A stretch of 63,292 bases of DNA, counting the filler, from Atractiella rhizophila (lineage: Eukaryota), in the NCBI GenBank assembly GCA_021432655.1. It is 4 parts of 4 records of this genome, joined end to end, with 100 filler letters (N's around TTAATTAATTAA, not from the genome) between each part and the next. Parts side by side here need not be neighbours in the genome. Positions count along the whole stretch, not along the records: positions 1 to 28,675 come from MU271193.1; 3 more parts are not named here. One strand, given 5' to 3'. Within the stretch, counting starts at the first letter, position 1; every line of letters starts with the position of its first letter. Below, one piece after another: positions 1-60,115 of the stretch. The translations under genes and the position numbers were made by a program. The notes under the pieces are model-generated. The model was given only the letters and a program-made list of their open reading frames with translations, did not search any database and had not been told where the DNA came from.

Positions 1-1298
1 TCAATGGACCTGAGCGTCCTGAACTCCACTCTCGTTGAAAAACAAACACTTTCCTTTCTTACTCACCACTAAGACAGAATCTAATTTCTCGTTTTTCTTT
101 TCTTTGAGTTGTGTTGAGCCTCGACATCAGAGCCTTTCAATGGTAAATATTGCTACAAGCATCCCTTGATCCCTTCGTCCAGGTGCAAACGATTTGAGTG
201 AGAGTGAAAGCCTCCAGTCAGGTATATGAGCAACCCTCTGTATAGGTTTGCAAATTTGGATTCTCCACTTACCTTCATGACAGGTTCAAACACAATCGCT
301 CCGGCCATCAATCAGCGCTGGCGCCTCAGCCAATTGTTTGACGCGTTCTCGGTACCTTCTCCGCTACTCCTGCCATTGGACCCAAAAGTCCACCAGCACT
401 CTCAGTGATACTCCCAGTTCGGTCGCAACCACACCTCTCTCAACACCGAGGTTACCACAGCCAGAGTTGTCCCCTACCACATCATACTGCCATCATTGAT
501 TGGTTCTCAGCGGACATAATTCTAATTCTAATAGGGATCAATCGATGGCTGCACAAAACACGCATCGCTACACCTCCCATTCTCCATCCTCCCTCCTCCT
601 CCGGTCATTCAAGGGGCTAAGTATTGCATAATCGTTCCTCTTCCTGGTCGTCAAGAACTCTGCCAAAGGGGAACGGCGCACATTTTCCTATCCTTATTCG
701 TGTAGCTTACCGTTTTGTTTCTATGCGAACGCAGGACTGAGAATCGCTGAGAAAGTCATTATCTAACTTTTCCATACATTTGGGTGTTTTAGGTACGCAT
801 ACTTCATTGTTACTTATGCTTCTATGTTCCTTTTCTTGCACTATGCAAACCATGTTTTAGAACCCATTATTTCGAACTCACCGCCGCTAAACGAGCCTTG
901 CCAGCTCTCACTTAGTCGCGTTACACCCAGCTTGCAAGGGAAACTGGTTCAGTCGAATACTGGAGCACTGTAGTCACTGTAACGTCCCTGATATCTTTGA
1001 GATGCCTTCTTATTCGCACTAAAGGAAAGCAGGGACTTCTGCTGGGCGGCTTGAGATTATTATTCATTAACTCATTATTCACGCTCTCTTCTCCAAAGTA
1101 AACATTCCGATTCCCGCGATAGCTTTTCAACGGAAGTATCGATTTTGCCGTCATTTCAACGTTGCTCGTCATCGCGCGGATCGCGAAGGAGCCATTAGCG
1201 AGCGGAAAGAACGAACCTTGACAAGCTCAAAGCTTGAAGTCTTCTCGCTTTGTCACAAACGCAAATCGCACGCAAATCGTCTGCAGCCAGGGAGGCGC

Positions 1299-2173
1299 TG
1301 AAGAGAGATACAACTTCCTTACTTCCTAGTGTTTAGTTTGAGCAACCGCAAAGAGTCTAGAACGAAGGGAAAAAGCCCGACCGGCCTATAGAGTGTCGGA
1401 GGCACTAGAGATGTAGACACCAACCCTGGACGAGCTGAAACTCACACTCGAAGCCGGACTGTGTTAGCTGCCGTCAGAGAACCTTCAACTCCAGAACCTG
1501 ACGTTCACATGGTCAAGTAAGAAGGCTACCGAGAGGGCGAACCCAGTGCTCTAGTTCCTAACACGACAAGTTCCAAAAACCGGACGAGGAGCGATGCTCG
1601 ACCTACCTAAACTCCTAAAAAGAAGACCCTGTTGGCTCTAAGCTACAGCCTCTATGCTGAGTATGTACATGGGTAGTGTTAGCTGCTGGAGATAGGTAAG
1701 TTGTTGGTGGTTCAAAGAGTTTAGAAACCTACAGTGCTAGAGAAGAACGTTCACACATAAACTGACCTAAAGTAAAACACCTGTTTCTGTAGAGTACAAG
1801 TAACGTTATCTACGGACTGGACCCAAGATACAACTAACACCTTTGACTTCTCAGGTTGTAGCAGAGAAGGCTAAAAGAGCTTAGAAAACTGACGGGGTTC
1901 CAGGTGTGTAATATGGAAATGCCGTGATTGCATCGTCACCTTTTTTCAGTAGACCACCAGGGGTCGCAGTCTGTGTCTCTAATCCCCTTTCACTTACACA
2001 AGACCAGGCTCGACACCCCGCTGGGTCTCTACCTACATGATAACGGAAGTGACTCTCCCAAAGGGGTAGAGCTTTCACTTAACACCGTCGTGTGGAAAGT
2101 GTCTAAATGCTACCCTGGCAAATCCGAAATGAAACTAGAGCGAATACCACTTCTTCTGCTTAAAGCTACCACT
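1299..2173. other. Mirror-encoded 3' half of a paralog of the F-box-like gene at 13627-15395 (read the complement left-to-right)
   Basis: The complement translates RWRFSDLASLFRAGRISHSLRDLYICGWDLLDFE...CKCTSSFFRWLSRL...FWPAPRYE...EIRLIHVPIT...ISSC/intron/CLTWFYVDCG...DCPKVHTLYL...FWSELWGDPE...EFRW*. This is colinear with RWHSADLLYLFHQGRTSDRLSSLYLVAWDLLDFE...CKVTASFIRWASRL...FWPSPHHE...EIRLRHLPIT...LSSC/SLSWLYIDCG...HCPKLVTLYL...YWGELWGAPE...FFRW*. There are several 1-nt frameshifts, mostly in homopolymer runs. Confidence 0.93.
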
Positions 2174-2394
2174 CAGTTACCCATTTGACGAATTACTCAA
2201 AGAGGTGCTGACACTAGGTCCTTACTGGCATAGCAGAACAACTATCAACACATAGCGCCCCGCCTTTGTACACGTATCGCCTTTATCATTTGCGAAATCT
2301 ATCTTGCATATTTTAGTATAATTGTTATAAGAAAGTATGTTAACAAAGAGAACTTTTTTCTCTGGGAGCGACGAACTGCGACTACAAAGAAGTC

Positions 2395-2937
2395 AATGAG
2401 GAGTCAAGGGGGTGCTCGCTCCGGAGGAAAGGACGGGAGGTGTACTCCTAGCCCAGGTCTGCGGGGTGGATAGGCGGGGTAAATACATTCCTTACAAGCA
2501 GTCTATTTTCCTCTGTCTGGTTTTGGCACGAGTCCTAAGCAAGAGAACAGTCCACACGGCAGGAAGAAGTTAGGTGGACAGTTGTACTTATTGTACTCGC
2601 AGAACTGCAGGTCGGGATTACCTTTCGGCTTTCCGCCTAACGCACCCTGTTTGGTACGAGGAAACCAGACATTCATAGTGAAGGTGGAGGCGGTCTTCTA
2701 AGTATTAGAAGTCATCAGAGCTGTCGAACAAGCACTGCTCGTAGTCGCGGACGAACAGGACGTGAGTTCAGTTCTACAATTGTTTTGTTAAAAAGATTTG
2801 TCTCCTCCTCACTGACTTGGTCGAAGTCCTAACAATCGAAACTTGGAGTACAGACCCGACGGCAGAACGGATGTACGTTTCATTTGTAGTTGTACGGGAA
2901 TTGTGTGTTCGTCTCGTGTGAATCATCCAGGCCAGTA
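2395..2937. other. Mirror-encoded complete 5-exon gene for a ~100-aa Gly-rich hydrophilic protein (read the + strand right-to-left, without complementing)
   Basis: ATG at 2937-2935, four GT..AG introns, TAA at 2397-2395. Spliced product: MTGPTKQDGSPDMRFKANNPEAGQAGADARHEQAVETTEDYESSGGGGSDTYRPKEHGGLKKDGTPDKRTNPEHGFGGASGPDPHVEGRKGGLARGGTEE. It has two K-x-DG-[ST]-PD-x-R motifs and a KGG motif. TATAAAA lies at 3035-3029 in the same reading. Confidence 0.9.
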
Positions 2938-3357
2938 CAACTACAACCGGACACTATAACATATGAGAAAACGGACAATAGCTTACAAGACTCAAACTAC
3001 CCAGGAACTGTCGCTCTCATCTCGTCATAAAATATCGAAACCCTCATCCTCCTCGTCTTCGATACTGCACTTTCCTGCAGTTTTTTGCATAGCTTATTGT
3101 CAAGGAGTAAAGGAGTCATGGCTAGAAGGGGTTTAGGGCGAAACAAGGTCGACTAAGATCAGGTTGCATGCTCGAGGTTGCTAAGGCTAAGGTCAGGGCG
3201 GTTGATACTTCCTCCTGCCAACGGAAGCCGACGTAAGTTATGTTGTCAGCTACGCGGTCGTGTTGTAACCGCCACTGTGACTCCCCGAAAGGTTGTCGTT
3301 ACCCTTTTCTTCTGGACTATAACAAACGCGTTTCCACTGTTTTAGTGACTAATACAA

Positions 3358-3382
3358 NNNNNNNNNNNNNNNNNNNNNNNNN
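3358..3382. other. Assembly gap (25 N)
   Basis: Run of exactly 25 N between the mirror block and the LINE. Confidence 0.99.
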
Positions 3383-6033
3383 TGAAAAAGCCTCTCTACT
3401 TCACTCCTCCTTCAACCCCTCTGCTCGCAGATGCGATCTCTCTGACATTCCACACCCCAATCCCCCCCTCCATCCCCTTCCCGCCCCCTAAAAATTGAGG
3501 AGATTGACGAAGCAATAGACAGGATTAAAACAGGCTCAGCGCCAGGACTCTCGGGCATTTCCAACAAGATGATAAAAGAGGTCAAGTTGGAGATCCGCCA
3601 CCACCTCCACAACATCTTCTCTGCCTGCTACCTAACAGGGTACTACCCCTCAGCCTGGAAACGCTTTACGACGGTTATCCTTCGAAAGCCCAAACGAGCG
3701 GACTATTCCCTTCCCTCAGCCTACAGGCCATTGCTCTCCTAGACTGTGTCGCGAAGGTCTTTGATGGCATCATTTCAGCCAGACTCACCTTCCACGCAGA
3801 GAGCAATGGAGCCCTCCCCTCCCATCACTTCGGTGCTAGGCCGGGTAGATCCACCAATGACGCTTTACTGACAGTTACGGAATTCATAAGAGAGGGCTGG
3901 AGGAACGGAGAAGTAACAGCATCGGTCTCGCTGGACGTCAAAGGCGCTTTCCCAACCGTGGTCCATGCACGCCTCATCGACAACTTAAGAAAGAGGGCAG
4001 TGCCGGAATGCGAGCTCGAGATCATCGAGGCATGGCTCCAAGATAGAGAGACTACCTACAACTTTGACGGCTATACCTCGAAGCCATTCGTCCTAGCAGT
4101 AGGACTAGCTCAAGGATCCCCCCTCTCTCCAATTCTATACTTATTTTACAATGCTGATCTCCTTGAATTACAGGGGCCAGAAGGGGAATCTCTCAAATGC
4201 GGGTTCGTAGACGACATCCACATGAATGCCCGTGCGACTAACCCAGAACGGGCTATTGCGAATCTCGAGGTGATGCTTGATAAAGCAATGGCCTGGGGTG
4301 AGAAACACGGTGCGATATTTGAGGAAGCCAAGACAGACTTTGTCCTCTATGGGAAACTAAAGAGGATGAAGTCCAGATTTGGGCACCTCACCATTCGTGT
4401 CGGATCTACAACCATATCGCAGTCACTGGAGATGAAGTACCTCGGAATGCTCCTTGATTCCAGGTTGACGTTCAACTCTCACCTAAAAGCGATTGAGAAG
4501 AAGGCGAAGTCGTCGCTCTCCCTTCTGGCAACGCTCTCCAATACGACGAAAGGCATCCCTCTATCTCATTATCGGCGCCTCTTCGAGGCTGCAGTTTGTG
4601 CTATGACGGACAACAACGCGATAATCTGGCATCACTTGGGGAAAAAGAGCGGAGGAGCAGAGCGCTTAGAGATAGTCCAACGTTACGCCCAGAGACTGAT
4701 ACTTGGAGCTTTCCGTACCACCCCAGCAACTGCTCTCGCTTACGACTCAAATCTACCTCCGGCAGTGGCACGTCTCGACAAAGTTGCTACAAGAGCAATG
4801 CTCAGATTACTCTCCCTCCCCGATTCCAACCCAGCAGGCAAGATCGCGAAAGGAAAGCTCAACTCACCCCCACCAAAAAAGCATCTATCCCCACTCAACT
4901 CGCTCCTGCTCTCCGATCACTTAAATTTTCCCAAGGATCTTGAAATCATTCCGGCCTACACCACCCATCCAGGTCACTCCCCGCCATTTGACACCTACAT
5001 CGCGGACTCGAAGGAAGAGGCCATGCAGGACTTCAAGAAGCTAAAGGAGGAAGAGGACATCTGGATATTCTCGGATGGCTCAAGAACGGAGGAAGGGGTA
5101 GCATGCGGTCTGGCGATGACGAATCCGGAAAGCAAGGCAGGCTATAGGCTCAGCAACCAGGACGACAACACCATCTTCGAGGCAGAACTCATGGGAATAG
5201 ATCGAGCCCTAGCTCTAGGCACGGCACTCAACATTTCCAAAGGAACAGTCTCATCCCTCCGCATCTTCACGGACTCTCAGGCAGCGATCAAAAACCTGAC
5301 GAAGAAACCAAGGTGCAAACCAGGAGTTGGCATCGTCCTCAACATCAACAGGTTGGCCGACAAATTTCGAAGACTTTACCCTACCTGCTCCATCTCCCTC
5401 CACTGGATACCAGGACACAGCAACATCAAAGGTAACGAGCTAGCGGATGCGGCAGCTAACAGTGCAACAGATCCAGAAACTGCAACAGGACACATCGTCA
5501 TCTCGAGAAGCCCAGCCGCACTCAAAGCGATCATCACAACAAATCGATTCACTCCCAAAGAGGCCTCTCCCCCCCCATCCGGCAAGCACCACCACTCTCT
5601 ATCTCGTCGACTCTCCCCGGATCAAACCTTCGACATGCTGAAGGAAATGCCACGCGCCCAAGCGTCAATCTTCGTCCAGCTACGTTCAGGCCACACCTCC
5701 ATCAACAATTACCTCCACCGTATCGGGGCATCAGAAGAACCGTCATGCAACTTTTGCGGAATGAGGGACACAGTCACCCACCTTTTTTTCGAATGTGAGG
5801 AACACGAGGACGAAAGGAAGAAACTTAGGAGCAGGCTGAGGAAGAAGGACATCAAATTCAGGTCACTTAGCGACCTCCTAAGCGAACCTGAGGCTACGCA
5901 AGCAGTGTGGGAATTCATCAGGAAGAGCGGGAAGTTCAGCTTATGGATCAAAAGGGCTCAAAGGGTGCTGGATAGGAGGAAAGAAGAGAGGAAAAAGAGG
6001 GCGGAAAGTAGAGGGGAAGAGCAAGAGGAGTGA
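3383..6033 (+). CDS. LINE ORF2 (reverse transcriptase, RNase H, CCHC finger), partial
   Basis: RT motifs SAPGLSGI, YRP(I)ALL, HFGARPGRST, LDVKGAF, QGSPLSP, FVDD, KYLG. RNase H motifs FSDGS, EAELMGI, TDSQAAI, HWIPGH, GNELAD. Zinc finger CNFCG..TVTHLFFEC. Two frameshifts in C-runs near 3470-3490 and 3730. Confidence 0.93.
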
Positions 6034-6473
6034 GAGGAGTGGGAAGACTAGGAAAACAAGTTATGTCTAATCTCACTCTCTACCTATCTAAGGCACCTTC
6101 TGCAGGATCCTACCATACCAGGAAAACCAATGGCCTTGAACACTAGAGTCGATTATACTTGAGGAGGACTCCATTACATCGTCACCGCATTTCGAAAACT
6201 ACAACCATTCATACCATAGCCATCGCGATTTAGTAACCCCCCATCCGCTTCTTACTCTCATCGACAACATTACTTTTCAAGGGGAATTCAGGGGGCTTCT
6301 TTTTACTTACACCTTACACACAATTAGCTGATTCATTACTCCCGGCACACTATCATCGTTCAGTTTGTTTCGGCTAGATACTTCTCTTTCTCCAAATGTG
6401 ACTTCCCCCAAATGTAGAGCTACGTTGACTATAGTCTGAAAGCTCTGAAATATGATCACAACAACAACAACAA
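3383..6473 (+). mobile_element. Non-LTR retrotransposon (fungal Tad-like LINE); 5' part lost in the gap
   Basis: RT, RNase H and C-terminal zinc-finger ORF, then a ~420-nt 3' UTR ending in TGAAATATGA and an (ACA)n tail at 6458-6473. Confidence 0.93.
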
Positions 6474-7660: not shown

Positions 7661-10600
7661 AAAACTCGGTGAGATGAATTCCTTTAATTCCTTCATAGTC
7701 AAAACAATTCCCCTGTTAATTTCTAACAGTACAGTTCTGCTATTTAGTGAATAGACTCTAATTAAGCCGTCTTTGTTTAGTTCCCCATTAATATTGTCTG
7801 CCAGTAGCTCTCCTTCTTGAATATGGTACAACGAGAAGAAGTTATATCTATTGGCAAACTGAGGCACGACTGAGATAATGCTGACCGCTGCAACTCGTCC
7901 AAGAGCATGTCAGATACGGGAAAGAGATAAGACATAATTCGGCGTTCACCGATGCACCGTTGTGTCCTTATAGTCTGAAGAATGGTGGTAACCTTGAATA
8001 GAGCAACTGCAATCAGCCAGGACTGGGAGTCGAGTCGGCTAAAATCACTGACACACCAGATTGTAGGACCATCCTTCAGGGTCAGCCTAGTGACTGGCGC
8101 ACGCAAGTCGTTAGAGATCTCTGTGACGTGCCTGACCTGCAGCCTAGGGCAAGCAAGGTGAAGTCGTCAAGGATGTTAAGAGAGAGATTCGCAATGGTCA
8201 CATAGAAAGCATAGAGAGCGCGTTTCAGACATGGATAAGGTCGATGCCAAGTTGCAACATTCCGCGCGATATTGCCTCATTTGATGTAAAGCAATACAGG
8301 ACAAAGCAGAGAACATTGTCTTCAGAGCATGAACGGCTGCAAGCCGAAATGTAAAAGTTCAAGAAAGGGAAGTAACCAATAAAGCCAAATCGTCAAAAGA
8401 GACCTTACCTCTATGTGGGGATACCCAAGCCACTGCCTAATGCCTAAGCGAGCAGTTGTCCTGCTTTTCTCTGAACACTGATCACCTTTCCTCAGTCGGA
8501 ACCTTGTCAACTTTGCTTGTTTGAAAAATTTGCTCCCGACACCCGCATCCGCGACGACGCTGGACCAAACATAACATACAGTTGCCCCTGAAAACGACAA
8601 AATAAAATGTCGAAAAGACGCGCAGAAAAGCAGTTGACAGATACGTGAGTATCCTGTCTTGAAGGTTGGACGTGATTTTCTGATGTGTTTTCAGAAACTG
8701 GCAGGACGCGGATCAAGATGAGGGGAACGAGTCTGTAGACTCTGACGGTCCTTTCAAGAGAGCGGACGACAGGGAACTGTCAGGAAGGAAAATTCGGAAG
8801 CTGCCTAGTGTCCGGAGAGGATTGACTGCTCCTGCCTCTGGAGCTGCCCCAGCTTTTGGTTTTGGAGTTTCACCGTCGCCTCCGCCTGGACTTACTCCTT
8901 CTAGTTTGGTGAGTCCTTTGTACGATAGCATTGGGGAGGGATATGTATTTACGACTGGTGTGCTTGTTCGCTTTCTCGGGAACAGCCCCTCAGTCCTCTC
9001 GACGCAAACCTCCAATATTACATGTCCCTGCGCGGCCTCAATGTCTCCCTTATCTCGCACCTCCAAAGTGTAGTAGACAAGGACCCGTTCGCTGATCTCT
9101 CCACTGTCCTCGCGTCCGCTCTGCCGATGTATACAAAGGAAAGGACTGGTGCAAACGCAAAGAAGGCCAGCAACAATCCTGTCAACCCTCCCGCTGAGGT
9201 TGCGAGTGAGAAAGGGCCAGAGAAGTCTGTTGGAGTAATAGAGGCGAAGGCAACGGAGGAAGCTGTTGGAGAGAAAGTTAAAAAGAACTTGTTCGGAGGG
9301 TTTACGCCTGTGACAACCAAAGTACCACCAGCCCCTGCTTCCACGGAAGTTAGTGGAACCGGAGACAAGAAAGAAGAAAAGAAACCCCTATTTGGAGGAT
9401 TCGGCGGTTTTGGTGGTGCCACTGTGGGCTCTTCTTTCGCTACGATCGCCCCATCTTTTGGTGCTCCAACGATAACTTCGTCGACATTTGGTGCACCAAA
9501 AGCGGAGGAGAAGAAAGAAGAGAAGAAGAGCTTGTTTGGAGCATTTGGAGGCACGACGTCGGAGAAGGAGAAGACGAGTACTGGCGCTTTTGGAGCTTTC
9601 ACTGGCTTTGGAGGGCCGAAGAAGGAAGAGCCGAAGGAGGAACCGAAACCTGCCACTCCTTCTCCATCCATGCCTTCTGTACCTTCCGCCTTTTCTTTCG
9701 GCGGGAAGACGATATCTTCTACGAACACCACTGGCGGAGCAACCGCACTCCCGCCGTCACCAGGTGGCTTTACGTTCAAACCTTCCTCCTCTTCGACAAC
9801 GTCTACCTCGACAAGTGCATTCTCGCTCCCCTCGCCTGCTTCCGCAAGCGTACCGGCTACGCTCAGCTTCGGAGGTTTGAAGACAGCGAACAAGCCGGAC
9901 CGTCCGAGCCCTTTGCGGGTTAGTGAAAGTGCTGACAACCTCTCGAGCACGTCTGGCCCGTCGAAAGAGTCAGACGCTGCGGGAGAGAAGAAGGGTGCAC
10001 CAGCATTTACCTTCGGAAAGACGAATACACCATTCGCATTCACCACGCCGAAGACACCTCCAAAGCCGACAGGGTTCGGTACAATTGGCGGACCAAAAGC
10101 TTCGCCCCCTGCTGCCAGTATTGGGTTCTCGTTCGGCGGTGCAGGCGCATCTCCCTTCACATTTAACCCTCTACCTACATCTACCACTGCAACCACCGCG
10201 CCGGGAAAGACGGTCTTGGCTCCCACAAACTCAACCACCGAGACCGAAGAAGAGGCTGAGGAAGGGCCATTGAGTCCTTCGGAGCGAGATGGGACGGAAA
10301 ATCTGTTTCTCAAGGGACCACGAAAACTCGGTGAGATGAATTCCTTCAATTCCTTCACAGTCAAAACAATTCCCCTGTTAATTTCTAACAGTACAGTTCT
10401 GCTATTTAGTGAATAGACTCTAATTAAGCCGTCTTTATTTAATTCCCCATTAATATCGTCTGCCAGTAGCTCTCCTTCATGAATATGGTACAACGAGAAG
10501 AAGTTATATCTATTGGCAAACTGAGGCACGACTGAGATAATGCTGACCGCTGCAACTCGTCCAAGAGCATGTCAGATACGGGAAAGAGATAAGACATAAT

Positions 10601-12974
10601 TCGGCGTTCACCGATGCACCGTTGTGTCCTTATAGTCTGAAGAATGGGTGGTAACCTTGAATAGAGCAACTGCAATCAGCCAGGACTGGGATTAGTCGAG
10701 TCGGCTAAAATCACTGACACACCACATTGTAGGGCCATCCTTCAGGGTCAGCCTAGTGACTGGCGTACGCAAGTCGTTAGAGATCTCTGTGACGTGCCTG
10801 ACCTGCAGTAGCCTAGGGCAAGCAAGGTGAAGTCGTCAAGGATCTTAAGAGAGAGATTCGCAATGGTCACATAGAAAGCATAGAGAGCGTGTTTCAGACG
10901 TAGATAAGGTCGATACCAAGTTGCAAGGCCTCATTTGATGTAAAGCAATACAGGACAAAGCAGAGAACATTGTCTTCAGAGCATGAACGGCTGCAAGCCG
11001 AAATGTAAAAGTTCAAGAAAGGGAAGTAACTAATAAAGCCAAATCGTCAAAAGAGACCTTACCTTATGTGGGGATACCCAAGCCACTGCCTAATGCCTAA
11101 GCGAGCAGTTGTCCTGCTTTTCTCTGAACACTGATCACCTTTCCTCAGTCGGAACCTTGTCAACTTTGCTTGTTTGAAAAATTTGCTCCCGGCACCCGCA
11201 TCCGCAACGTTGCTGGACCAAACATAACATACAGTTGCCCCTGAAAACGACAAAATAAAATGTCGAAAAGACGCGCAGAAAAGCAGTTGACAGATACGTG
11301 AGTATCATGTTTTGAAGGTTGGACGTGATTTTCTGATGTGTTTTCAGAAACTGGCAGGACGCGGATCAAGATGAGGGGAACGAGTCTGTAGACTCTGACG
11401 GTCCTTTCAAGAGAGCAGACGACAGGGAACTGTCAGGAAGGAAAATTCGGAAGCTGCCTAGTGTCCGGAGAGGATTGACTGCTCCTGCCTCTGGAGCTGC
11501 CCCGGCTTTTGGTTTTGGAGTTTCACCGTCGCCTTCACCTGGACTTAATCCTTCTAGCTTGGTGAGTCCTTTGTACGATAGCATTGGGGAGGGATATGTA
11601 TTTATGACTGCTTATTCGCGTTCTCTGGAAAAGCCCCTCAGTCCTCTCGACGCAAACCTACAATATTACATGTCCCTGCGCGGCCTCAATGTCTCCCTTA
11701 TCTCGCACCTCCAAAGTGTAGTAGACAAGGACCCGTTCGCTGATCTCTCCACTGTCCTCGCATCTGCTCTGCCGATGTATACAAAGGAAAGGACTGGTGC
11801 AAACGCAAAGAAGGCCAGCAACAATCCTGTGAACCCTCCTTCTGAGGTTGCGATTGAGAAAGGGCCAGAGAAGTCTGTTGGAGTAATAGAGGCGAAGGCA
11901 ACGGAGGAAGCTGTTGGAGAGAAAGTTACAAAGAACTTGTTCGGAGGGTTTACGCCTGTGACAACCAAAGTACCACCAGCCCCTGCTTCCACGGAAGTTA
12001 GTGGAACCGGAGACAAGAAAGAAGAAAAGAAACCCCTATTTGGAGGATTCGGCGGTTTTGGTGGTGCCACTGTGGGCTCTTCTTTCGCTACGATCGCCCC
12101 ATCTTTTGGTGCTCCAACGATAACTTCGTCGACATTTGGTGCACCAAAAGCGGAGGAGAAGAAAGAAGAGAAGAAGAGCTTGTTTGGAGCATTTGGAGGC
12201 ACGACGTCGGAGAAGGAGAAGACGAGTACTGGCGCTTTTGGAGCTTTCACTGGCTTTGGAGGGCCGAAGAAGGAAGAGCCGAAGGAGGAACCGAACCCTG
12301 CCACTCCTTCTCCATCCATGCCTTCTGTACCTTCCGCCTTTTCTTTCGGCGGGAAGACGATATCTTCTACGAACACCACTGGCGGAGCAACCGCACTCCC
12401 GCCGTCACCAGGTGGCTTTACGTTCAAACCTTCCTCCTCTTCGACAACGTCTACCTCGACAAGTGCATTCTCGCTCCCCTCGCCTGCTTCCGCAAGCGTA
12501 CCGGCTACGCTCAGCTTCGGAGGTTTGAAGACAGCGAACAAGCCGGACCGTCCGAGCCCTTTGCGGGTTAGTGAAAGTGCTGACAACCTCCCGAGCACGT
12601 CTGGCCCGTCGAAAGAGACAGACAACGCAGGAGAGAAGAAAGGTGCACCGGCATTTACTTTCGGAAAGACGAATACACCATTCGCATTCACCACGCCGAA
12701 GACACCTCCAAAGCCGACAGGGTTCGGTACAATTGGCGGACCAAAAGCTTCGCCCCCTGCTGCCAGTATTGGGTTCTCGTTCGGCGGTGCAGGCGCATCT
12801 CCCTTCACATTTAACCCTCTACCTACATCTACCACTGCAACCACCGCGCCGGGAAAGACGGTCTTGGCTCCCACAAACTCAACCACCGAGACCGAAGAAG
12901 AGGCTGAGGAAGGGCCATTGAGTCCTTCGGAGCGAGATGGGACGGAAAATCTGTTTCTCAAGGGACCACGAAAA
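7661..12974. repeat. ~2.66-kb tandem duplication (copy 1 ~7661-10322, copy 2 ~10323-12974)
   Basis: The copies are near-identical, with scattered SNPs and indels. The junction is ...GGACCACG-AAAA-CTCGGTGAG. Confidence 0.95.
8607..10324 (+). pseudogene. NUP2: Truncated NUP2/Nup50 copy lacking the Ran-binding domain (probably an allelic or assembly duplicate)
   Basis: Same N-terminus and FG region as 11260-13343, cut at the duplication junction just before the RanBD. Confidence 0.75.
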
Positions 12975-13343
12975 GGGGAAGAGGAAGAAGAAGAGGTTGG
13001 AGCTGAAAAGGCGGCTAAGGTTTATCGATATACGAGCTCTGGAGATAAGAAGGAGTGGAAAGAAGTTGGGACTGGGGTTGTGAGAATAAAGCGACAGAAA
13101 GGAGGTGATAGAAAGAGGCGCTTGCTTGGAAGGATGAACGGTACTCAAAACGTGATGGTAAACGTCGCACTGAATAAGGATTTCAAGATCAGCCTCGAGG
13201 GATCGAGTGTCTGTTTCCCCGCTTGGCGCGAGGAAGAAGGGAAGATGGTGGCGATGAGGATGAGACTAAAGAGCAAGGAGAAAGCACAGGAGCTTATGGA
13301 GGAAGTAAAGAAGGAGATTGCGGCATTTGAGGAAGGTAACTAG
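11260..13343 (+). CDS. NUP2: Nucleoporin Nup2/Nup50
   Basis: N-terminal MSKRRAEKQLTD...FKRADDRELSGRKIRKLP (NUP50 motif), many FG/FxFG repeats, and a C-terminal RanBD (AKVYRY...WKEVGTGVVRI...RRLLGR). Introns at ~11298-11347 and 11562-11633. Confidence 0.9.
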
Positions 13344-13626: not shown

Positions 13627-15395
13627 CTACCACCTAAAAAACACGGGAGGGTGATCCCTCATGAGGACATGCAGGTGTAGGTTGCCCATCTTCGTTTGCC
13701 ATGAACTCTCGCCATAGAGTTCAGGTTTGACATTATTGAGATCTTCGAGCTTCGACAAAACACCCTCGGTCTCTGGAGCTCCCCACAACTCTCCCCAATA
13801 AAACGACAAAGTCTGAGGCGCAGTCGCTTTGTCCTGTCGTTCTGCCCATGCGAGGATCTTCTCGAGACTGATACAACAGCTAAAGAGATATAGTGTGACG
13901 AGTTTAGGACAGTGCAGCGTTTCGAGGATCGAAGGGGAGACGAGGTTGGAATCGCCACCACAATCGATATAGAGCCATGATAGGGAGCTACAGTCAACCA
14001 AGGATCAGCTTCACTCATGAGTGGAGAGAGCGGATGGTAAAGGTACCAGCATGAGGAAAGAACGTCCAGTGGTTCCAAAAAGCTAGCTGAGCCAAATATC
14101 CCGACAGTGTCAGTCGTGATGGGGAGATGCCTTAAACGGATTTCGGTGACAGATTCTCGTACATCGAGCAGAAAACTTTTGAAAGATTCAGTCTCATGAT
14201 GAGGAGAAGGCCAGAAACTCTCGAAAGCCAAATCAACCAGTTGAGGGCACAGACGCGAAGCCCATCGAATGAACGAAGCTGTAACTTTGCATTTGACAAG
14301 TTCAAAAGTTTTCAGGTTCCCTTTGACGCTTCCATAGTCTGGCTGCTCTTCGAAATCTAACAAGTCCCAAGCAACAAGGTATAGACTGCTAAGGCGATCG
14401 GATGTTCGACCCTGGTGGAATAAATACAAGAGATCTGCAGAATGCCAACGTGCTAGGTTATGAGCCCTCACCCCTTCGATGTGAAGAGAATCTAATGTTT
14501 CCATTTGGGCAATCAAATACATGACCCGTTGGCGAGAAGATGCCTTGGTAGGTGGCCGAAGTGAAAGAACGAGGGTACGAATGCTGTGACCCATTCCAAA
14601 GTACATGGATGCAGTTTTCCACACAATGTTACGATTATCGAAATCGTTGTCGCGGAGAAGAAGCATCCTGATCCATGGTACTAACTTTTGTTGATACCGC
14701 TGTAGAAACTTGACAATATTGACGCTTTTGATCATATCAAAAACAGGAGAACCTCGCATTTCTGTTTGAGCTCCAATTTGGCGATAAAGGGCAATTTGAC
14801 CAACACCGTCGAACCGTCGACATACCAGACGAAATATCTGGATGTGTGCGAGATTCTGTTGATATTGACGAAAAGCAAAATGCCGTTCGGACTCTGGCGC
14901 CAGCTGGTGCAAGTGAGGCGAAGCTAACATCTCAGTCAAACAAGAGAAAAGTATTTCGTTTGGCAGGGAGTCAAACGGATTCACTTCCCAGGCTTGAAAT
15001 AGTTGTATATCGATTGTGCTCGACGTTCGTAAATGAGAAAGTGTCCTGAGACTGCGATGAAAAGTTAACGTCGGTGGAAGATCTGTAGTATCAATACAAA
15101 TGCGGTCAGAATCTTGCAAAATGTCGACCTCAGGCACATCGATGGAGCAGATGAATGCCGGTGTCGACAGTCGAGCGCGAAAAATAATTGGACCTGACGG
15201 TGGGAGTTTTACAAAAAGAAAAGTTCGCTGGGAACAATCTTCCTCTGAATATGAAATATGTACGACAAATGTCTTCGCGTGAGCAAGCCAGAGTCTTGCC
15301 GTGGCTGTAAAAATCAACCTCGCAATAACTGAATCGGAGTCAATATCCGTTTCAACGCTGTGAACACAATTGGACACATTAACCACGAGAGCCAT
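13627..15395 (-). CDS. F-box-like protein with a degenerate LRR-like C-terminus
   Basis: F-box-like segment FDSLPNEILFSCL...FRLVCRRF. One phase-2 intron at 14046-13988 joins the 578-aa and 124-aa ORFs. A paralog lies in the mirror block. Confidence 0.7.
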
Positions 15396-15813
15396 ATTTG
15401 AGGGATCAGTTTGGCAAGCATTCGATATCAGATATTAACCCACTCGAGCGGCGGCATCAACACGAGCCATCCTAATAAGTCTCTCTGTGACAGGCCATTT
15501 GATGCGGGCCTCATTGAAATGCTGCTGTGGGCCCCTTGACAGGTACATCCATTACGGCTGTGGACGGCGTCGTCGCCGGTCGCTCAAAGTCGGCCCTTTT
15601 TTTCAATTCATTGGGCTCAGTCAAAATTATCCGTTGGAATGCGTGTAAAGACAAGGCAGAAGTTGGAATCTCTTGAGACAACTTCGCTGAATGAAGAGAT
15701 CATGTTTCCAGCCGTGCGCGCGATGTCGCGGGTAGTCGCAGCAGCAACTTTACTCCTTGTCAACGATCGACGATCGTAACTTGCAAGCTCTGCCAACGCA
15801 GCCAGTTTCTAGA

Positions 15814-18800
15814 ATGAACAACATGCGCCGTTTCCTACCCACAATCCCCTCTCCCTCGCCCGACTCTTCCCTAACGCAACAATTCTCCTCCCTATCCAAT
15901 CTCTCCAACGGCGCCGCCTCTTTCTTCCGTCCAGGCAATTCCAACAGCTCCACTAGCAACAGCAACGGGTTCAAACGGAGCGATTCTACCTCTACTCGCG
16001 ACGGTGGCAGAGGGAGTGATGGAGGACATAGGCCCATGGACTCGTTGGCAAGTCTCGGGAGTGGCATTAGTGGTGTTAGTGCTGGGAGTACGAGTAGTAG
16101 GAATGTAGGAGGAGGGAAGACCCCTTTGGGTGAGGAGGAGATATGGTTGGAGCTGTTAAGTGCTCAGGCGGCGGTTGAAGCCCGTTCTGGAGGCTGGGAA
16201 GTAATGGGATGGGAGGAGGTGGAGAAGTGCAAGAAGGTGGGTCACTTCTTCTTTTACTTCAGCGTTGGAGAGGTGGGAGGTAGAGGAGAGACACATTTTT
16301 CCTCTTCCGGACCGTGTTGTACGATGTGAGAGACGTGAAGAGTGTTCGTAGAAGATCCAAACGGGTTCTGACACCCCTCGCTGTCTGGATGAAGGGAAGA
16401 ATAGGTGGTCACATGGCTTGCCTTGATCCTCTCCACATTTACGTTTTATTGCTCTCATGCCTCGCTAGAGCATCTATGAACTGGCACAGACGGAGAGCCC
16501 GTCTTTTTCCCTTGACTGAGGTATCCTTTCTATTGTCAACGAATTGGATCTTACATGTTAAATAGCTATCAAGATTAGTCAAGATTAATTTTGCTTAATC
16601 TTGAACACTTCTAATTTCTCTCCATCCGTCGCAAGAGCCCCAATACTCAACCACACCCTGCAGGCATATCAATCAGTCACCAAACGATTAAGCAGTGCTC
16701 AATCCAAGCTCTCCCTTGAAATGCGCATTCGATCCGCTTCCCGCATCCTAGATGCTGCCTCGTCTCCACCGATCGAGGATCCGAAGATATCTTCTCTAAT
16801 GAAAGAAGCGTACGACCTAATGGTTGAGGAAACCGAACTCAAGACGAAGCTCCTACGACATTACGTTGCAGTCCTGTCGAGGGTTTTGGGGAGACGAGAA
16901 CAGGAAGATGTGGACGACGCCAGCGCCAGCGCCAGCGGGAGCGTTAATGGTGTAGGATCAATACGCACACGCACCACGTCCACCCCCAATGGGCTACGGA
17001 AGAGCGCAAGCTCGACACCTCTCACTTCCCCGCGCTCGGTGGACAAGTTCGAAGGACCACATCTCTTCGCTGGCAACGCGAACTCATCTCTGCTCTCGAA
17101 ATCTTTCGCCTCTCCACCGTCTTCACGTTCGCAGTCTCCTGCTCTCTTCCTCAATGGTGCCGCAGCAGGAGTTGACGTGAAGGCTCACGAAGAGTTAAAG
17201 TCTGAAGTCGAGACTTTGCGGAAGGAGCTGACGCAGGCGAAGGCCGATGCGATGAAGGAGAAGGAATCTTCGATTCGGCGGAACCGTCTGGACGACGACC
17301 GGAAGGATCGGGAAATACTTCGTTTGAATAGTATGGTAAATGTGTTAGAGGAACGAGTGGCCCAAGGGAAGCGTGCTAACGAAGACGTTGGAGTCATGGA
17401 GGAGGCGCTGAAGGCGGCAAAGGAGAATGAGAAGAAATTCGAGGGCGAGATTGAGTACCTGGAGGATTTGTTAAAGAAGATGGAGCAGGAGGAAGAGGCG
17501 AGAAAGGCCGAGATTGAGGAGCTTAAGGATAGGATCGCAACGCTCGAGGACGGTGAAGGAGAGACAGAGCGTTTGCGAGCCGAAATTGAAGGCCTGCAAG
17601 AACAACTTGGAGAAGCTGGAGGTCGCTCTCGAGGGGAAGAAGAGAAGATGTCGGCTGCTCTGCGGGAGATGGAGGAGAAGGACGCGAAGTCTCGACAGGG
17701 GATGGAGGAAGAACGCAAACGAGCGAAAGAGTCACTCAGGACCAAACTTACTGAAGTCATCACCGCCTCTTCTCCCAAACGTGGAATTGGTTTCCGTCGA
17801 CCCTCTATTGCTCCTCCCCCAAATGCTGGCCTCTTCGCTAAATTCTCTCCCGAACCCTTCACCGAATCGCGGCAGAGCGATCTTCCCTCTTGGATCAATG
17901 AAACGCTCAACGACTTCTTTGACAAGCTATCTACAAGCATGAAAGCAGCCGAGAGGGAAAAAGAAGGCGAATTTGAGGATCTGCGGAAACAAGAAAGTGA
18001 CGCTCGAGCAGCGACAGAACAGACTCAACAGCGAGTAGAGGAGTTGGAGAGCGAGATCCGGATATTAGAGAACGAAAAGAAGGGATGGGAGACGAATGCA
18101 GCAACCTCGAAAGCCGAGGAAACTGTCCGACTGAATGACGAAATCAAAGAGCTAAACCGTAAGCTTGACAATGCAGAGAAGGATGTCATCGCTCTCAAGG
18201 ACCTTTTCATCGCGGTACCCGACCGTTCCAAGGTCCCAAGTTCGGACGATCTCAGAACGCTCAAAACGGCATTTGACAATACGGGCACTGGTGCACGCCC
18301 AATGGGCAACTTCATGCAGGATCTGGCTGCCAACAGATTCTCGACGGAAGCTTTTATCGCCAAAGTCAAAGGTTAATTATTGTTGCTTACGTCGAGCAGA
18401 ACTTGCTGAATTGTTTGTCTAGGTCTCATTGCTGCGGATAAGATGCTGGTTGACAAACTCGTCAAGTTCGAAGCGAGTCAAGATACACAGAAATCGAACG
18501 CCGACCGTCTTCAGAAGATGCTGCTTGAATCTAAAGAAGGTCTGGTGACGTATAAGCAGCGTGCGTCCCTTCTAGTTCCTTGTTTATTCGTGCTGAAAGT
18601 TGCCGGTTGCAGAGGTTTCTGAACTGGAAGAACGGCTAGATGCGGCTATGGAGAAAGAGGTGAACATGTTGACGACTCAATCGGATCTTCAAGAGTCTAT
18701 CGATGGCTTACGGTCGGACAAAGCCAAGTTCACAGCCGTCCTTAAGGAAAAGGACAATATGATCAAGACTTTAGAGGCAGAGCGTTCGAAGCTTGGGACG

Positions 18801-19085
18801 TCCATGTCGGCGTTACAGAAGGAGCTAGAGAGTCGACCTGTCGGCGTGGAGGATGAGCTTGAAGAGTTGAAGGAGAAACTCAGAGAAACAGAAGATCAGC
18901 TAGATGAAGTGTCCAATACGTATCAGGATCAGAGAATTAAGATGTTGGATGAGGTGCGTTGATTCGATCTTTTCCTTTTCGTGAATGACTGACGCTCTTT
19001 ATAGTTGAACAAACTTCAACAAGAAACCGGCAATTTACGAGCGCAGCTGAGAGCTGAACAGAGAAAGAATCAGGCGAAGAAATGA
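15814..19085 (+). CDS. Uds1 (up-regulated during septation) domain coiled-coil protein
   Basis: ELLSAQAAVEA..WEVMGWEEVEKCKK/AYQSVTKRLSSAQSKLSLEMRIRSA...KLLRHYVAVL resembles the Uds1 domain and is followed by long E/K-rich heptads. Four introns. Confidence 0.7.
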
Positions 19086-20532
19086 TGCCATTTCACTTCA
19101 CATATGTTGCACTTTCTTGAATCACCTGCCTTGCCTAGCTTTACTTCGTTCATTATCGGTGTCTCTGTACTTCGACTTTCTTACACCACATTTTAGTGCA
19201 ATCATTATCGCAAGGCTGTCTCCTCACGTCCTAGCCTGAAGTTCAACTTAATAGGCCGTTGGTTTTTCGGTGCTGAGCCACTGAGCTTCATCTTGCCCAT
19301 CGTCACCATACCCCATCCTCGCGAACGTCCACTCTCCACTCCACGTTCTCTTTCCCTCATTTCCTTCTTGAGGTTCCACAAAGGACGCAGCATGATTCAC
19401 AAAGGTCAGCTTCCTTCCATCCGCTGCTCTCAACTCGCTCATCTTCGGTCCTCCTTCCTTCAAAAGATGATTCATCTGTTCCTTTGAATGCTGGTTGACA
19501 AACTCGTCAAGTTCGAAGCGAGTCAAGATACACAGAAATCGAACGCCGACCGTCTTCAGAAGATGCTGCTTGAATCCAAGGAAGGTCTTGTGACGTATAA
19601 GCAGCGTGCGTCTCTTCTAGCTCGTTTAATTGGTACTGACAATTGCCGGTTGCAGAGGTTTCTGAACTGGAGGAGCGGCTAGATGCAGCTATGGAGAAAG
19701 AGGTGAACATGCTGACGACTCAATCGGATCTTCAAGAGTCTATCGATGGTTTACGGTCGGACAAAGCCAAGTTCACAGCCGTCCTTAAGGAAAAGGACAA
19801 TATGATCAAGACTTTAGAGGCAGAGCGTTCGAAGCTTGGGACGTCCATGTCGGCGTTACAGAAGGAGTTAGAGAGTCGACCTGTCGGCGTGGAGGATGAG
19901 CTTGAAGAGCTGAAGGAGAAACTCAGAGAAACAGAAGACCAGCTAGATGAAGTGTCCAATACGTATCAGGATCAGAGAATTAAGATGTTGGATGAGGTAC
20001 GTTGATTCGATCTTTTCCTTTTTCGTGAATGACTGACGCTCTTTATAGTTGAACAAACTTCAACAAGAAACCGGCAATTTACGAGCACAGCTGAGAGCTG
20101 AACAGAGAAAGAATCAGGCGAAGAAATGATGCCATTTCACTTCACATATGTTGCACTTTCTTGAATCTCACCTGCCTTGCCTAGCTTTACTTCGTTCATT
20201 ATCGGTGTCTCTGTACTTCGACTTTCTTACACCACATTTTAGTGCAATCATTATCGCAAGGCTGTCTCCTCACATCCTAGCCTGAAGCTCAACTTAATCC
20301 GCCGTTGGCTTTTCCGTGCTGAGCCACTGTGCTTCATCTTGCCCATCGTCACCATACCCCATCCTCGCGAACGTCCACTCTCCACTCCACGTTCTCTTTC
20401 CCTCATTTCCTTCTTGAGGTTCCACAAAGGACGCAGCATGATTCACAAAGGTCAGCTTCCTTCCATCCGCTGCTCTCAACTCGCTCATCTTCGGTCCTCC
20501 TTCCTTCAAAAGATGATTCATCTGTTCCTTTG
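18443..20532. repeat. ~1.04-kb tandem duplication (18443-19486 and 19488-20532) of the convergent 3' ends of the Uds1 and CoA-transferase genes
   Basis: Near-identical copies separated by one A at 19487. Confidence 0.95.
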
Positions 20533-28675: not shown

Positions 28676-28775
28676 NNNNNNNNNNNNNNNNNNNNNNNNN
28701 NNNNNNNNNNNNNNNNNNNTTAATTAATTAANNNNNNNNNNNNNNNNNNNNNNNNNNNNNNNNNNNNNNNNNNNN
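28676..28775. other. Artificial 100-nt spacer (44 N + TTAATTAATTAA + 44 N)
   Basis: All-frame stop linker centred in Ns; the same spacer occurs at three sites. Confidence 0.98.
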
Positions 28776-28784
28776 TAAAGCAAC

Positions 28785-31395
28785 ATGCAGAAGCTGAAAT
28801 CGCTCCCCGTCCTCACCTTCTCCTCGTCGTCACCGACGACCTCCGCGCCTTCTCCCTCGAACGCCCTTCCCTCGCCGCTCTCTCCAGGCAACGGCGCAGG
28901 TTCCCGCTCAGGATCGCGCGCGGGATCACGTTCTCGGAGGCCCGGGACGCCGAAGGAGAAGGACCGTCGAGCGCGGAGCGTGTCCCCGAGTCCTTTTAGG
29001 AGGAGCTTTGGGAGTTTGAGTCAGGCGATCAGAGGGGAGAGGGAGAGGGAGAGGGAGAGCGTGGATAGTGGTGCGGAAAGCGATGGGGAGAGCGTGGTGG
29101 GAGCGATGATGAGAGAAAGGAGGGGTGGCGAGGAGAGCGATAGTGATAGTGATAGTCGGGACGGCGATTTTGAGAGGGTGGACGGGCAGAGCAGTTCGGA
29201 GAGCGAGGAGGAGTGGACGGAGGAGGTTAAGGGTAATACTGAGGTGGGTTTCTTTTTCTGTTGATCAGGTCTGTCTAGATCGTGAAGATTGTGCTTTCGG
29301 TGGAACGTTTCGCAATTCTCAGTGTTCTGATTTCAGTGCCAACAGTATGGGCAAGCCACTCTTTCAGTGTCGTGGTCTGAGCTGATTTTCGAACCCTTCA
29401 TGTAGGACATGGGATTGTTTGCTATCGTGTGATCAACTGTCTTGATTAGCTGTTGAGTTTACTATGTTAGCAACAAAGGAAGTTCCTTCGAACTTGCCCC
29501 CTCTTTCGCACTGCAGAGGGGAGGCTTGTTTGAACAGATGTCTCGCAAGAGTCAGATCTATTCAACTTGAGCCAACGGACAACGAAGCAAAATGTACATG
29601 TGACACATTCGCAGTATACGAGCTTTGTCTCAGCGATCAACATTTGGGTTGACCCTTTTACCCCGAATGCTCAGAAATGCATTCTATCGATATTCATTTT
29701 GTTCAGAAGGAATGCTCTCGTTCCAAGTCGCGCGAGCATGAAGAGTAGGCGTTTGTCCTTCTTCAATGTTGGTGACATGAAGTCTTTTTGGATGCCATTA
29801 TCGGACGCCACCTTGAGGAGCAGAATCCGATGGTGTGTTTAAGTTCTCCGTTCGCTCGACCTACATGAGGCCTGACCTTACTTTGTTACGTCTGCTCGAT
29901 TTGAAGGAAAGAATGAGAGCAGAACCGTCGTTATGCTTACGATCTGTGATCTTCATGTCTACAATCGTTGCCGTCATACGTCAATCGATAACCTGCGGTG
30001 GTGGGACTAGACCGTCGAGATGTTATAGACATGCATTACCAGGCAGACTGACAATTTCTGTGACTTTCGTCCTTCCTCAAGGAGCATCGGCAATACCGTG
30101 GTGTTTGTGCAGTTCTCCTTCCGGATCATTTCATGTGCAATTGCTCAGCGCGCACATTCTGTGTCTGAGTTCCGATCCTCCGAGAACATTGTCGGAGAGC
30201 AGTCCGCTCTTCTATCCTCACTCCTCCGCGCGAGTCGTCCATCTGATGGGGAAGGAATCAGGCGAACGCGTCTTCCATGTCACCGATCGACTTTCTGCTT
30301 CAACAAAGCGCGCAAGAATTGCCGATCCAAGACGGACCGAACCTTCTGCCTCCTACGAGCCCCTTTCGTCCGATTCCGAAGCGGAAGAACACGAAGAGCT
30401 TGACGACCCTGGCCCTGCATACGAGCCGTCCGGTGTTCGAGAGGAATCGGTGCACGATCACGATCGATCATGGAGATCCGGAGGGTGTGGGGAAGACGAA
30501 GAAGAGGACGAGGAAGTATTTGGTCGCGAGCGATATGAGCGAGGAGAGCTTGTTCGCTATTGAGTGGGGTGCGTTTCGTGCTTTTCTTGTTTGCTTGATG
30601 TGTGTTGACCTTGTGTGTTGGTTCCACAGCTATTGGAACAGTGTTGAGGGATGGTGATCACGTTGGTTCTTTCTTTATGCCTCGTTGGGAGGTGGATCTG
30701 ATGTTGTGTTGGATAGTGTCTAATTGTCACGGTGATGGAAGACGAGAAGAAGTTGGACTCTGATGACGGCAGCGATAAGACGGCCAAGATCCGAAACCAG
30801 AATGAGAGGCAGGGTCGGGCGTTATTGCTGTCTAAAGAAGGTGGGCTCTCTCCTTCTACATATGTTTCTGCACACGCGTCTGACACATAATGCGACGCAG
30901 CCACCTCGCTTGTCGAACGGACGAGGCTGAATGTGAGGATCATCTGTCAAGCTATCCATGCCAAAAACGCCCGTCATATGTTGGTCGATATGTTCGTCCT
31001 TTCTCTTTCGTCTCACCTTCACAATGAGCTGAACACGTGCAGGATCGACTACCTTGAACCTACGCTGGTGCTGATTGGCTCCCGCGGTCTCGGGAAGATT
31101 AAAGGGTGCGTCTACTCCTCCCTGCTTTTTTGGATTCAGTCTTACACATCCTCTCTTTGGATATCAAAGAATGCTCCTAGGATCCGTCTCGAATTACCTG
31201 ATCCAAAAGTCGTCCGTTCCGGTGATGGTTGCCCGTCGTCGATTGAGGAAGATACCGAGGGTCCATAAGCCCAAGTCGGCGTTGAATCGGGATGCGAGGG
31301 TGCCGTTGGAGATGGCGGCGATTGAGAAGGAGAGCAACGTGGGGAACGTGCATCATGAGGATTTGGAGAAGGAGAAGATGGAGCAGAAGAAGTAG
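28785..31395 (+). CDS. Universal stress protein (Usp) domain protein with an S/R-rich N-terminus
   Basis: KYLVASDMSEESLFAIEW.IGTVLRDGD, LVLIGSRGLGKIKGMLLGSVSNYLIQKSSVPVMVAR. Exon 1 joins in frame (GNTE/ANASSMSP) across a 1018-nt intron. Confidence 0.85.
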
Positions 31396-33056
31396 CTCAC
31401 GGTGAGGAACGGTATGTTGTGTGATATAAGGTCCATGCATTGGGAAGTGGATCTTCCAAAGCAGGCAAGAGCGCACTTGTATGGTACCCTGTATGTTGAT
31501 GTTGGATAGCCAACTAAATTTCAATGCCGAATGTGGAAACAAAATGAAACATTGAACCGCCCTTCGCTCCTGCTTCTCGCTTGTTGAAAGCGCAGGGAAA
31601 GCTCGGTGAAACGCCGACAGCCGAACCACTAAATTGGTCTTTTTTCGCTCACTCAAAACAACCTGAACTCCCGCTGTGACCCCAATTCCTATCAATCCAT
31701 CGCCCCTTTTCACCTTTCTCAAGCACTCAATTGCTGCTTCTGGTTGTGTATCATCTCGCCAGGTTGAAGCTTCGAAGTGAAGGCGAGGCAGCAGGTAAGT
31801 TACTCTCTTCTCTTTGTGGTTTCTGCTGTGATGTTAGTGTGTGCTGTGATGTTACAATTCACCACTCTTATAAGTATCCCCTACTCGCATCATTCTCATT
31901 GCTGCATCACTATTGCTTACTCCCTTCTACTTGATATATGATGCTCATCCCGTTTCCATAGAAAAAGCAACCCAGCAAAACAATGGCAAAATCAAGCGTC
32001 TTCCACTCCGTCCTTCGCTTTCTCACCTCTCCAACTACAATCGCAGCTTTCAAGGGGACTCTCGCTTACGTCCTGGTCCTGCTTCTCATCTTCCTCGATG
32101 GATCCAGAAAGTTCTTGGATTTTCCCGTTGCGTGAGTTCCGGTGATGGTCGCCCGTCGTCGATTGAGGAAGATACCGAGGGTCCATAAGCCTAAGTCGGC
32201 GTTGAATCGGGATGCGAGGGTGCCACTGCAGATGGCGGCGATTGAGAAGGAGAGTAACGTGGGGAACGTGCATCATGAGGATTTGGAGAAGGAGAAGATG
32301 GAGCAGAAGAAGTAGCTCACGGTGAGGAACGGTATGTTGTGTGATATATAAGGTCCATGTATTGGGAAGTGGATCTTCCAAAGCAGGCAAGAGCGCCCTT
32401 GTATGGTACCCTGTATGTTGTGGATGTTGGATAGCCAACTAAATTTTAATGCCGAATGTGGAAACAAAATGAAACATTGAACCGCCCTTCGCTCCTGCTT
32501 CTCGCTTGTTGAAAGTGCAGGGAAAGCTCGGTGAAACGCCGACAGCCGAACCACTAAATTGGTCTTTTTTCGCTCACTCAAAACAACCTGAACTCCCGCT
32601 GTGACCCTCAATTCCTATCAATCCATCGCCCCTTTTTCACCTTTCTCAAACACTCGACCGCTGCTTCTGGTTGTGTATCACCTCGCCAGGTTGAGGCTTG
32701 AAGGCGAGCCAGCAGGTATGCCCTTTCACTTCTCTTCTCTTTGTGCGATCCTTGCTTCTGCTGTGATGTTACAATTCACCACTCTTATAAGTATCCCCTA
32801 CTCGCATCATTCTCATTGCTGCATCACTATTGCTTACTCCCTTCTACTTGACTTGATATATGATGCTCATCCCGTTTCCATAGAAGAAGCAACGCAGCAA
32901 AACAATGGCAAAATCAAGCGTCTTCCACTCCGTCCTTCGCTTTCTCACCTCTCCAACTACAATCGCAGCTTTCAAGGGGACTCTCGCTTACGTCCTGGTC
33001 CTGCTTCTCATCTTCCTCGATGGATCCAGAAAGTTCTTGGATTTTCCCGTTGCGTG
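31216..33056. repeat. ~0.92-kb tandem duplication (31216-32134 and 32136-33056) of the Usp 3' end and the ArAE gene 5' end
   Basis: Near-identical copies with small indels, separated by one A at 32135. Confidence 0.95.
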
Positions 33057-50026: not shown

Positions 50027-50126
50027 NNNNNNNNNNNNNNNNNNNNNNNNNNNNNNNNNNNNNNNNNNNNTTAATTAATTAANNNNNNNNNNNNNNNNNN
50101 NNNNNNNNNNNNNNNNNNNNNNNNNN
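50027..50126. other. Artificial 100-nt spacer (44 N + TTAATTAATTAA + 44 N)
   Basis: Same linker as at 28676. Confidence 0.98.
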
Positions 50127-50755
50127 GTTTCTTCGCTTCGTTCTCTGCTCGCGCAATCTGACGTTGACGCCATTCTTCTTGTTTTCTCTGCGCTTCTTCC
50201 GCCTGCACCGATCACATTCAACAATCCAAAAATACAATGAGAGGAAGGAATACGCACCTGAGCCTCCTTATTAAACGCTCGTCCCTCCACATGATGTTCC
50301 GAAATCCCCAAAGCCTTCCTCATCTTCTCCGTCTCCTCCACCTTCCTCAACGTCATCTCCGTCCCGCTCTCCTTCTCCCCAAGTCTCCTCCTCACCTCCC
50401 CTTCCTCCGCCTTCAACTTCTCCCTCAACTCCTCCACCCTCCTCGTCACCTCCTCCTCCCCCACACCTTCGTCCTCAAGCTCTATCTGCAGCTCCATACA
50501 CTTGTTCTCGATGGCCCGCTTGCGCTCGTGTTCGAGAATGGATGCGTCTGGCGTACGGTGCGTGACGATGCTGTAGTCCGCGTTGGGCGAATACGTTGCT
50601 GCGCTGTCCCGTACACGTAGTGCTGCTAGGTTGCGTTGGATGTATCCTGACGTCCCTGAGCCACGCGGAGTGGTGAGTCCGATGCCGTTGTAGGACCTGA
50701 GACATGACCAGCATTACATTCCCAGTAGTATTGGCAAGAAAGGAAGGACAAACAT
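50127..50755 (-). CDS. CWC21: Splicing factor Cwc21/SRRM2 N-terminal part, copy A (cut by the spacer)
   Basis: MSYNGIGLTTPRGSGTSGYIQRNL...PDASILEHERKRAIENKCMELQIELED. The ATG is split by an intron. Confidence 0.9.
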
Positions 50756-60015: not shown

Positions 60016-60115
60016 NNNNNNNNNNNNNNNNNNNNNNNNNNNNNNNNNNNNNNNNNNNNTTAATTAATTAANNNNNNNNNNNNNNNNNNNNNNNNNNNNN
60101 NNNNNNNNNNNNNNN
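60016..60115. other. Artificial 100-nt spacer (44 N + TTAATTAATTAA + 44 N)
   Basis: Same linker as at 28676. Confidence 0.98.

Follow-up and report, generated by a model that had tools for sequence, protein, structure and literature searches.

Positions 1298-3357 of the 63,292-nucleotide stretch of the Atractiella rhizophila assembly GCA_021432655.1 that was analysed here (the window, at its full length) are written in mirror orientation, i.e., the sequence is reversed without being complemented. The block as printed is not a biological feature, and it hides part of a real gene. Very probably it is an assembly or data-processing artefact, in which a long-read contig extension was pasted reversed, and not complemented, beside a scaffold gap of 25 N. 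The features that the argument needs are given below; P0001 and P0002 are two proteins of A. rhizophila and X1 and X2 two sequencing runs, all of which are described further on.

1-1297, no strand: left flank, in natural orientation and partly repetitive, at whose end the short-read contigs stop (log-likelihood; X1 and X2 contigs)
1298-3357, no strand: mirrored block, written reversed without complementing (orientation statistics, contig cover and the loose end behind 1297)
1298-2170, no strand: last 268 codons (residues 395-662) of P0002, on the plain complement read left to right
1338, 1618, 1628, 1701, 1824, 1843, 1943, 1962 and 1984, no strand: nine clear single extra bases, from the P0002 alignment
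1756-1810, no strand: intron, about 55 nt long and bounded by GT..AG when the complement is read, boundaries uncertain by a few bases
2171-2173, no strand: stop at the end of the mirrored gene, TGA on the complement and ACT as printed
2174-3357, no strand: remainder of the mirrored block, with a weak period-3 peak at 2521-2880
3358-3382, no strand: scaffold gap of 25 N
3529-6030, plus strand: ORF of a non-LTR retroelement, right of the gap and in natural orientation (RVT_1 2.7e-22, RNase_H 1.8e-10)
13627-15434, minus strand: paralog P0001 (BT69DRAFT_1315547), matched in tblastx by the mirrored block only

The orientation of the DNA was assessed with strand-symmetric Markov models of order 1 to 5, trained on window positions 3401-63292, by comparing the log-likelihood of a segment as printed with that of its plain reversal. 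Across these orders the block scored between -66.6 and -118.8 bits, whereas the left flank (1-1297) gave +26.2 to +46.9 bits, in keeping with the claim of an earlier note that this flank reads naturally, and the region to the right of the gap (3383-5400) gave +49.8 to +129.3 bits. When the whole window was scored in a two-fold cross-validated run, five of the 122 tiles of 500 nt were negative. The three that lie wholly within the block gave -30.4, -15.7 and -17.5 bits, and the other two were marginal (-2.3 at 6001 and -1.1 at 9501). For the tiles outside 1001-3500 the mean was +15.1 bits and the SD 7.3, and the block tiles fall 4-6 SD under the mean of the other tiles; within this window, the orientation likelihood set the block cleanly apart from the 119 other scored tiles. 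The dinucleotide ratios are inverted: TA/AT is 1.73 in the block versus 0.74 and 0.63 outside, and (CA+TG)/(AC+GT) is 0.80 versus 1.24 and 1.23. The cumulative orientation score has its change-point near 1308, and the signal lasts until the gap, which does consist of 25 N at 3358-3382 and closes the block, while the contigs of X1 and X2 cease to fit the printed sequence exactly at 1297. The orientation statistics are thus inverted in the block relative to the rest of the window, far beyond chance.

As printed, the block codes for nothing that could be recognized, as had been claimed. Its longest stop-free stretch is 86 aa; none of the seven printed ORFs of at least 60 aa lying wholly inside it matched Pfam, the printed block gave no match in Rfam, and the family of P0001 and P0002 found no counterpart in it by either tblastn or tblastx. 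In a tblastx comparison within the window, the printed block matched itself only. Judged by sequence comparison, the block must be reversed or complemented before it shows homology to real genes, and it shows none as printed or reverse-complemented.

The first sign that the mirrored block is coding came from P0001. The ORF at 13659-15395 on the minus strand matches one database protein, the hypothetical protein P0001, the exon parts of which are identical to the window. The reversed block gave co-linear tblastx matches to 13669-14468 on the minus strand (summed E 3.9e-34), which became 2.6e-37 when a smaller database was used; these matches were made by the mirrored block only. No Pfam domain was found in P0001. 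Its relatives, searched with HMMER among 1.84 billion representatives, amount to 11 proteins at E <= 0.001, and when all 11 were compared with the flank plus the reversed block, P0002 stood out. This protein is the hypothetical protein BT69DRAFT_187006 of A. rhizophila, located on a contig of 88,447 nt, and P0001 lies on a different contig, of 191,464 nt. Since P0002 is named on another contig, the same public assembly annotates its gene elsewhere, in normal orientation.

With tblastn, segments of P0002 were 89-100% identical to the mirrored block, in three different reading frames. These pieces were joined by an alignment that allows for frameshifts and introns: residues 395-662 of P0002 correspond to 1298-2170 on the plain complement, where 266 of the 268 codons agree, the TGA stop follows directly after the last residue of P0002, and the intron of the mirrored gene is at the same place as that of the paralog P0001. 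Against the printed window, the sole match of P0002 is the paralog, at 13630-15302 on the minus strand. The earlier note had stated that the mirror reading would fail if the block, once reversed or complemented, had no read or protein match; the complement of 1298-2170 does match P0002, at the 266 of 268 codons mentioned. It had also described two convergent spliced genes in the complement, and of these one stands, as the spliced fragment of the P0002 gene, whereas the second comes down to a weak period-3 peak. In its true orientation the fragment is on the minus strand and points to the flank at 1-1297. The gene breaks off at residue 395, at the end of the block that adjoins the gap in the true orientation, as is expected of an extension that simply stops, and residues 1-394 were absent from both sides of the gap when the printed window was searched. 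P0001, P0002 and P0004 form a lineage-specific family of A. rhizophila that has no Pfam domain; the mirrored block resembles its members in encoding the C-terminal 268 residues of P0002, but differs from them in that its copy is truncated and has its frame broken by sequence errors. A metagenome scan for natural DNA around relatives of P0002 gave 23 pattern matches and no relative.

The remainder of the block, 2174-3357, offers less. Fourier analysis of printed 2521-2880 showed a period-3 peak of 2.28, a weak hint of a second coding stretch. Coding windows have a median of 1.88, and the 75th percentile over the whole window is 1.9, so that the peak is merely of the order usual for coding windows. 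No paralog of 2174-3357 was found in the window by tblastx of the reversed block. A codon (3-periodic) Markov model based on 10 ORFs of the window failed to single out the part of the block that is verified as coding, and since it fails on the P0002 part it carries no information on a second gene.

The alignment with P0002 also reveals the quality of the sequence. Over the 873 nt for which there is a protein reference, all nine clear frame breaks are insertions; a tenth extra base, at 1811 in the frameshift-aware alignment, adjoins the intron and is ambiguous. Eight of the nine clear insertions lie in runs of at least three identical bases, which make up 17.4% of the bases in the stretch (binomial P = 6e-6). 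The insertion rate over 1298-1984 is about 1.3%, and no extra base occurs at 1985-2170. Errors dominated by insertions and linked to homopolymers are typical of uncorrected long reads, and single-base insertions in homopolymers, as seen here, follow this pattern. The clustering of indels at 1300-2000 that had been reported earlier holds for the coding part (nine at 1338-1984, none at 1985-2170), the reference stopping at 2170.

The junction at 1297 was followed in short-read data. A search of sequencing runs with window positions 1-3357 returned four runs, of which X1 and X2 were the best, with word shares of 0.25 and 0.24; these are DNA runs of the organism itself, taken from one sample and hence not independent, and the assembly may have been built from them. 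No RNA run was among the four. The other two, X3 and X4, come from other organisms and touch repeats in 1-1008 only. Contigs of X1 and X2 cover 1-1297 and nothing of 1298-3357. In both runs the loose end directly behind 1297 reads AACATAATCAGTGATT, and these 16 letters are the exact reversal of window positions 3342-3357 and do not recur on either strand of the window; the chance match of a specified 16-mer is about 2e-10. The overhang is shorter than the 31 letters required for counting a contig as bridging, and the read support for the reversed reading is this 16-letter overhang in contigs of two runs from one sample. The missing contig cover over 1298-3357 is a weak argument when taken alone; it is the loose end at 1297 that carries the argument. 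Because the overhang is the reversal of 3342-3357, what really follows 1297 is the block in backward order, beginning with 3357. Therefore, the base printed at 3357 is the one that comes directly after 1297, and the base printed at 1298 forms the far end of the block, beside the gap. An earlier proposal had been to look for reads that span the junction and match the printed sequence; the contigs of X1 and X2 instead leave the printed sequence at 1297 and go on with the reversed reading.

The left flank itself is not uniform. Word depth at 1111-1297 is 289 in X1 and 244 in X2, versus 86 and 133 for 161-708, which suggests that the last 190 nt of the flank are probably present in two to three copies. 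The extension may consequently belong to another copy of this repeat, other than the present locus. An X2 contig of 600 nt carries a diverged version of the flank over 952-1297, which differs by 9 letters and 30 gap positions; the segment 743-952 is skipped, and 175 other letters stand in between. This contig ends in the same 16-letter overhang, so that a variant copy or haplotype shares the junction. Farther upstream, the flank is highly repetitive at 1-224 and 785-1008: for 785-896 the word depth is 2,336 in X1 and 8,575 in X2, and that of 1-112 reaches 190,174 in X3, a different organism. The repeats of the left flank had no match in Rfam.

A sequence of events that would account for the block can be proposed. 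A contig would have ended at window position 1297, beside a scaffold gap, and an extension of about 2.06 kb made from noisy long reads would have been joined to this end. When the extension was spliced in, its string would have been reversed with the complement step left out, possibly by a routine meant for quality strings, or by half of a reverse-complement step, applied to the bases; what was left of the gap would then have been written as 25 N. The true order would be the flank at 1-1297, then printed 3357 down to 1298, and then the gap. The artefact reading is preferred because the complement yields 266 of 268 P0002 codons, the overhang is reversed, the block has no contig cover, and homopolymer insertions lie beside a gap of 25 N; on these same results the earlier suggestion of a long-read gap extension attached in reverse without complementing gains considerable support.

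Gap-filling programs of the PBJelly type offer a possible parallel. In PBJelly, a run of N counts as a gap from a length of 25 upwards (PMC3504050), and the same source describes overfilled gaps and the incorporation of reads that extend the flanks when a gap is only reduced (PMC3504050). The insert studied here starts at the short-read contig end (1297 plus 16 letters) and adjoins a gap of 25 N, the gap-defining size of PBJelly. The DENTIST paper gives the mean identity of PBJelly inserts as 88-96% (PMC8848313), and another report, on other fungal genomes with JGI-pipeline annotation, describes AllPathsLG assemblies that were patched with PBJelly (PMC12923307). The literature searched yielded no assembly method for the present genome, and the block may be linked to PBJelly by analogy. 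The block is like an extension of this kind in being new sequence at a contig end, beside a remaining run of N and less accurate than the flanks; it differs in that such extensions are normally correct and antiparallel, whereas the block is reversed only. No description of PBJelly-type output that is reversed only was found in the literature searched.

The block should also be distinguished from an inversion misassembly, with which it shares a wrongly oriented segment beside a gap. A segment that has been inverted stays normal DNA, since it is reverse-complemented; it is still found by BLAST, gene finders and read mappers, and its orientation statistics are normal. The homology of the block, in contrast, needs a non-biological reversal to be seen. 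Judged by title and abstract, and among the matches listed, there was no report of reversed, non-complemented blocks in deposited assemblies.

An alternative origin, which we regard as improbable, is that the reversal occurred outside gap filling, during manual editing, in a submission script or in the later handling of the record of a correct contig end. No result names the responsible program, and reversed decoys made deliberately, as set out in the RRE preprint (10.64898/2026.04.14.718546), show that routines of this sort exist. Such decoys, used as a null model, involve the same string operation, by which base composition is kept and all homology lost (10.64898/2026.04.14.718546); they differ from the block in being made on purpose and in not being deposited as genome sequence. 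However, the stretch starts exactly at the end of a short-read contig and stops exactly at the 25-N gap, and it contains insertion errors that are not visibly shared by 1-1297. The start at a contig end, the stop at a gap and the insertion errors together fit a single long-read piece that was spliced in.

Even less probable is that the block was complemented in place and not reversed, in which case the gene would run from left to right, starting from the flank. The gene does read left to right on the plain complement, and as double-stranded content complementing and reversing are equal, so the protein match would fit either operation. The two can be told apart at the junction, where the overhang behind 1297 is the reversal of 3342-3357 and not the complement of 1298-1313; furthermore, neither residues 1-394 of P0002 nor the N-terminal half of the paralog were found in 1-1297. 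Complementing in place was rejected on account of the contig overhang.

That the printed sequence is real in the organism, as a genuine mirror copy of a gene, was raised by the earlier reading only and has no result in its favour; with run contigs that quit the printed sequence at 1297 and follow the reversed one from there, a word share no higher than 0.25 in the best run, and, to our knowledge, no polymerase or recombination pathway that makes a reversed, non-complemented copy, it can be dismissed as vanishingly improbable.

If the block is a long-read extension that was reversed without complementing, its significance lies in the quality of the data. It has no biological importance, because the organism almost certainly does not contain the sequence as printed. 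Nevertheless, 2 kb of a deposited fungal assembly are uninterpretable to aligners and gene finders, and they duplicate, in hidden form, part of a gene that is annotated on another contig. The block points to a fault in processing, and other extended gaps may be affected by it as well. It is conceivable, although rather doubtful, that the error is systematic and that the patching step of this assembly, and perhaps of others made in the same manner, writes some class of gap extension reversed only; were this so, public fungal genomes would contain many blocks beside 25-N gaps in which real sequence escapes BLAST, annotation and read mapping, and which could be found by a simple scan of orientation likelihood. 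The Markov likelihood of a tile versus its reversal is a cheap test of orientation.

Several other aspects of the window were recorded. To the right of the gap, the region 3383-6100 contains a non-LTR retroelement with an ORF of 834 aa. Its zf-RVT match (9.1e-4, 20.3 bits) is below the curated cut-off of 27.5, and a short ORF upstream of it, at 3446-3742 and in another frame, suggests a frameshift. Four pairs of near-duplicates are also present. In three of them the copies abut in tandem: 7661-10326 and 10323-12974 (97.0% identity), 18443-19486 and 19488-20532 (96.8%), and 31216-32134 and 32136-33056 (93.6%). In the fourth, 50127-51203 and 51841-52926 (91.4%), the copies are about 640 nt apart. 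These four pairs may represent true duplications, or else haplotypes that were left uncollapsed and set in tandem. The idea that the abutting near-duplicates are a sign of noisy long-read patching was rejected, the differences between copies being mostly substitutions. Of the copies, the second alone has an intact NUP50/RanBP1-like gene (11337-13343). Finally, the gaps of 100 nt at 28676-28775, 50027-50126 and 60016-60115 each consist of 44 N, TTAATTAATTAA and another 44 N; TTAATTAATTAA is a linker with stops in all frames, which suggests that separate pieces were joined at these positions.
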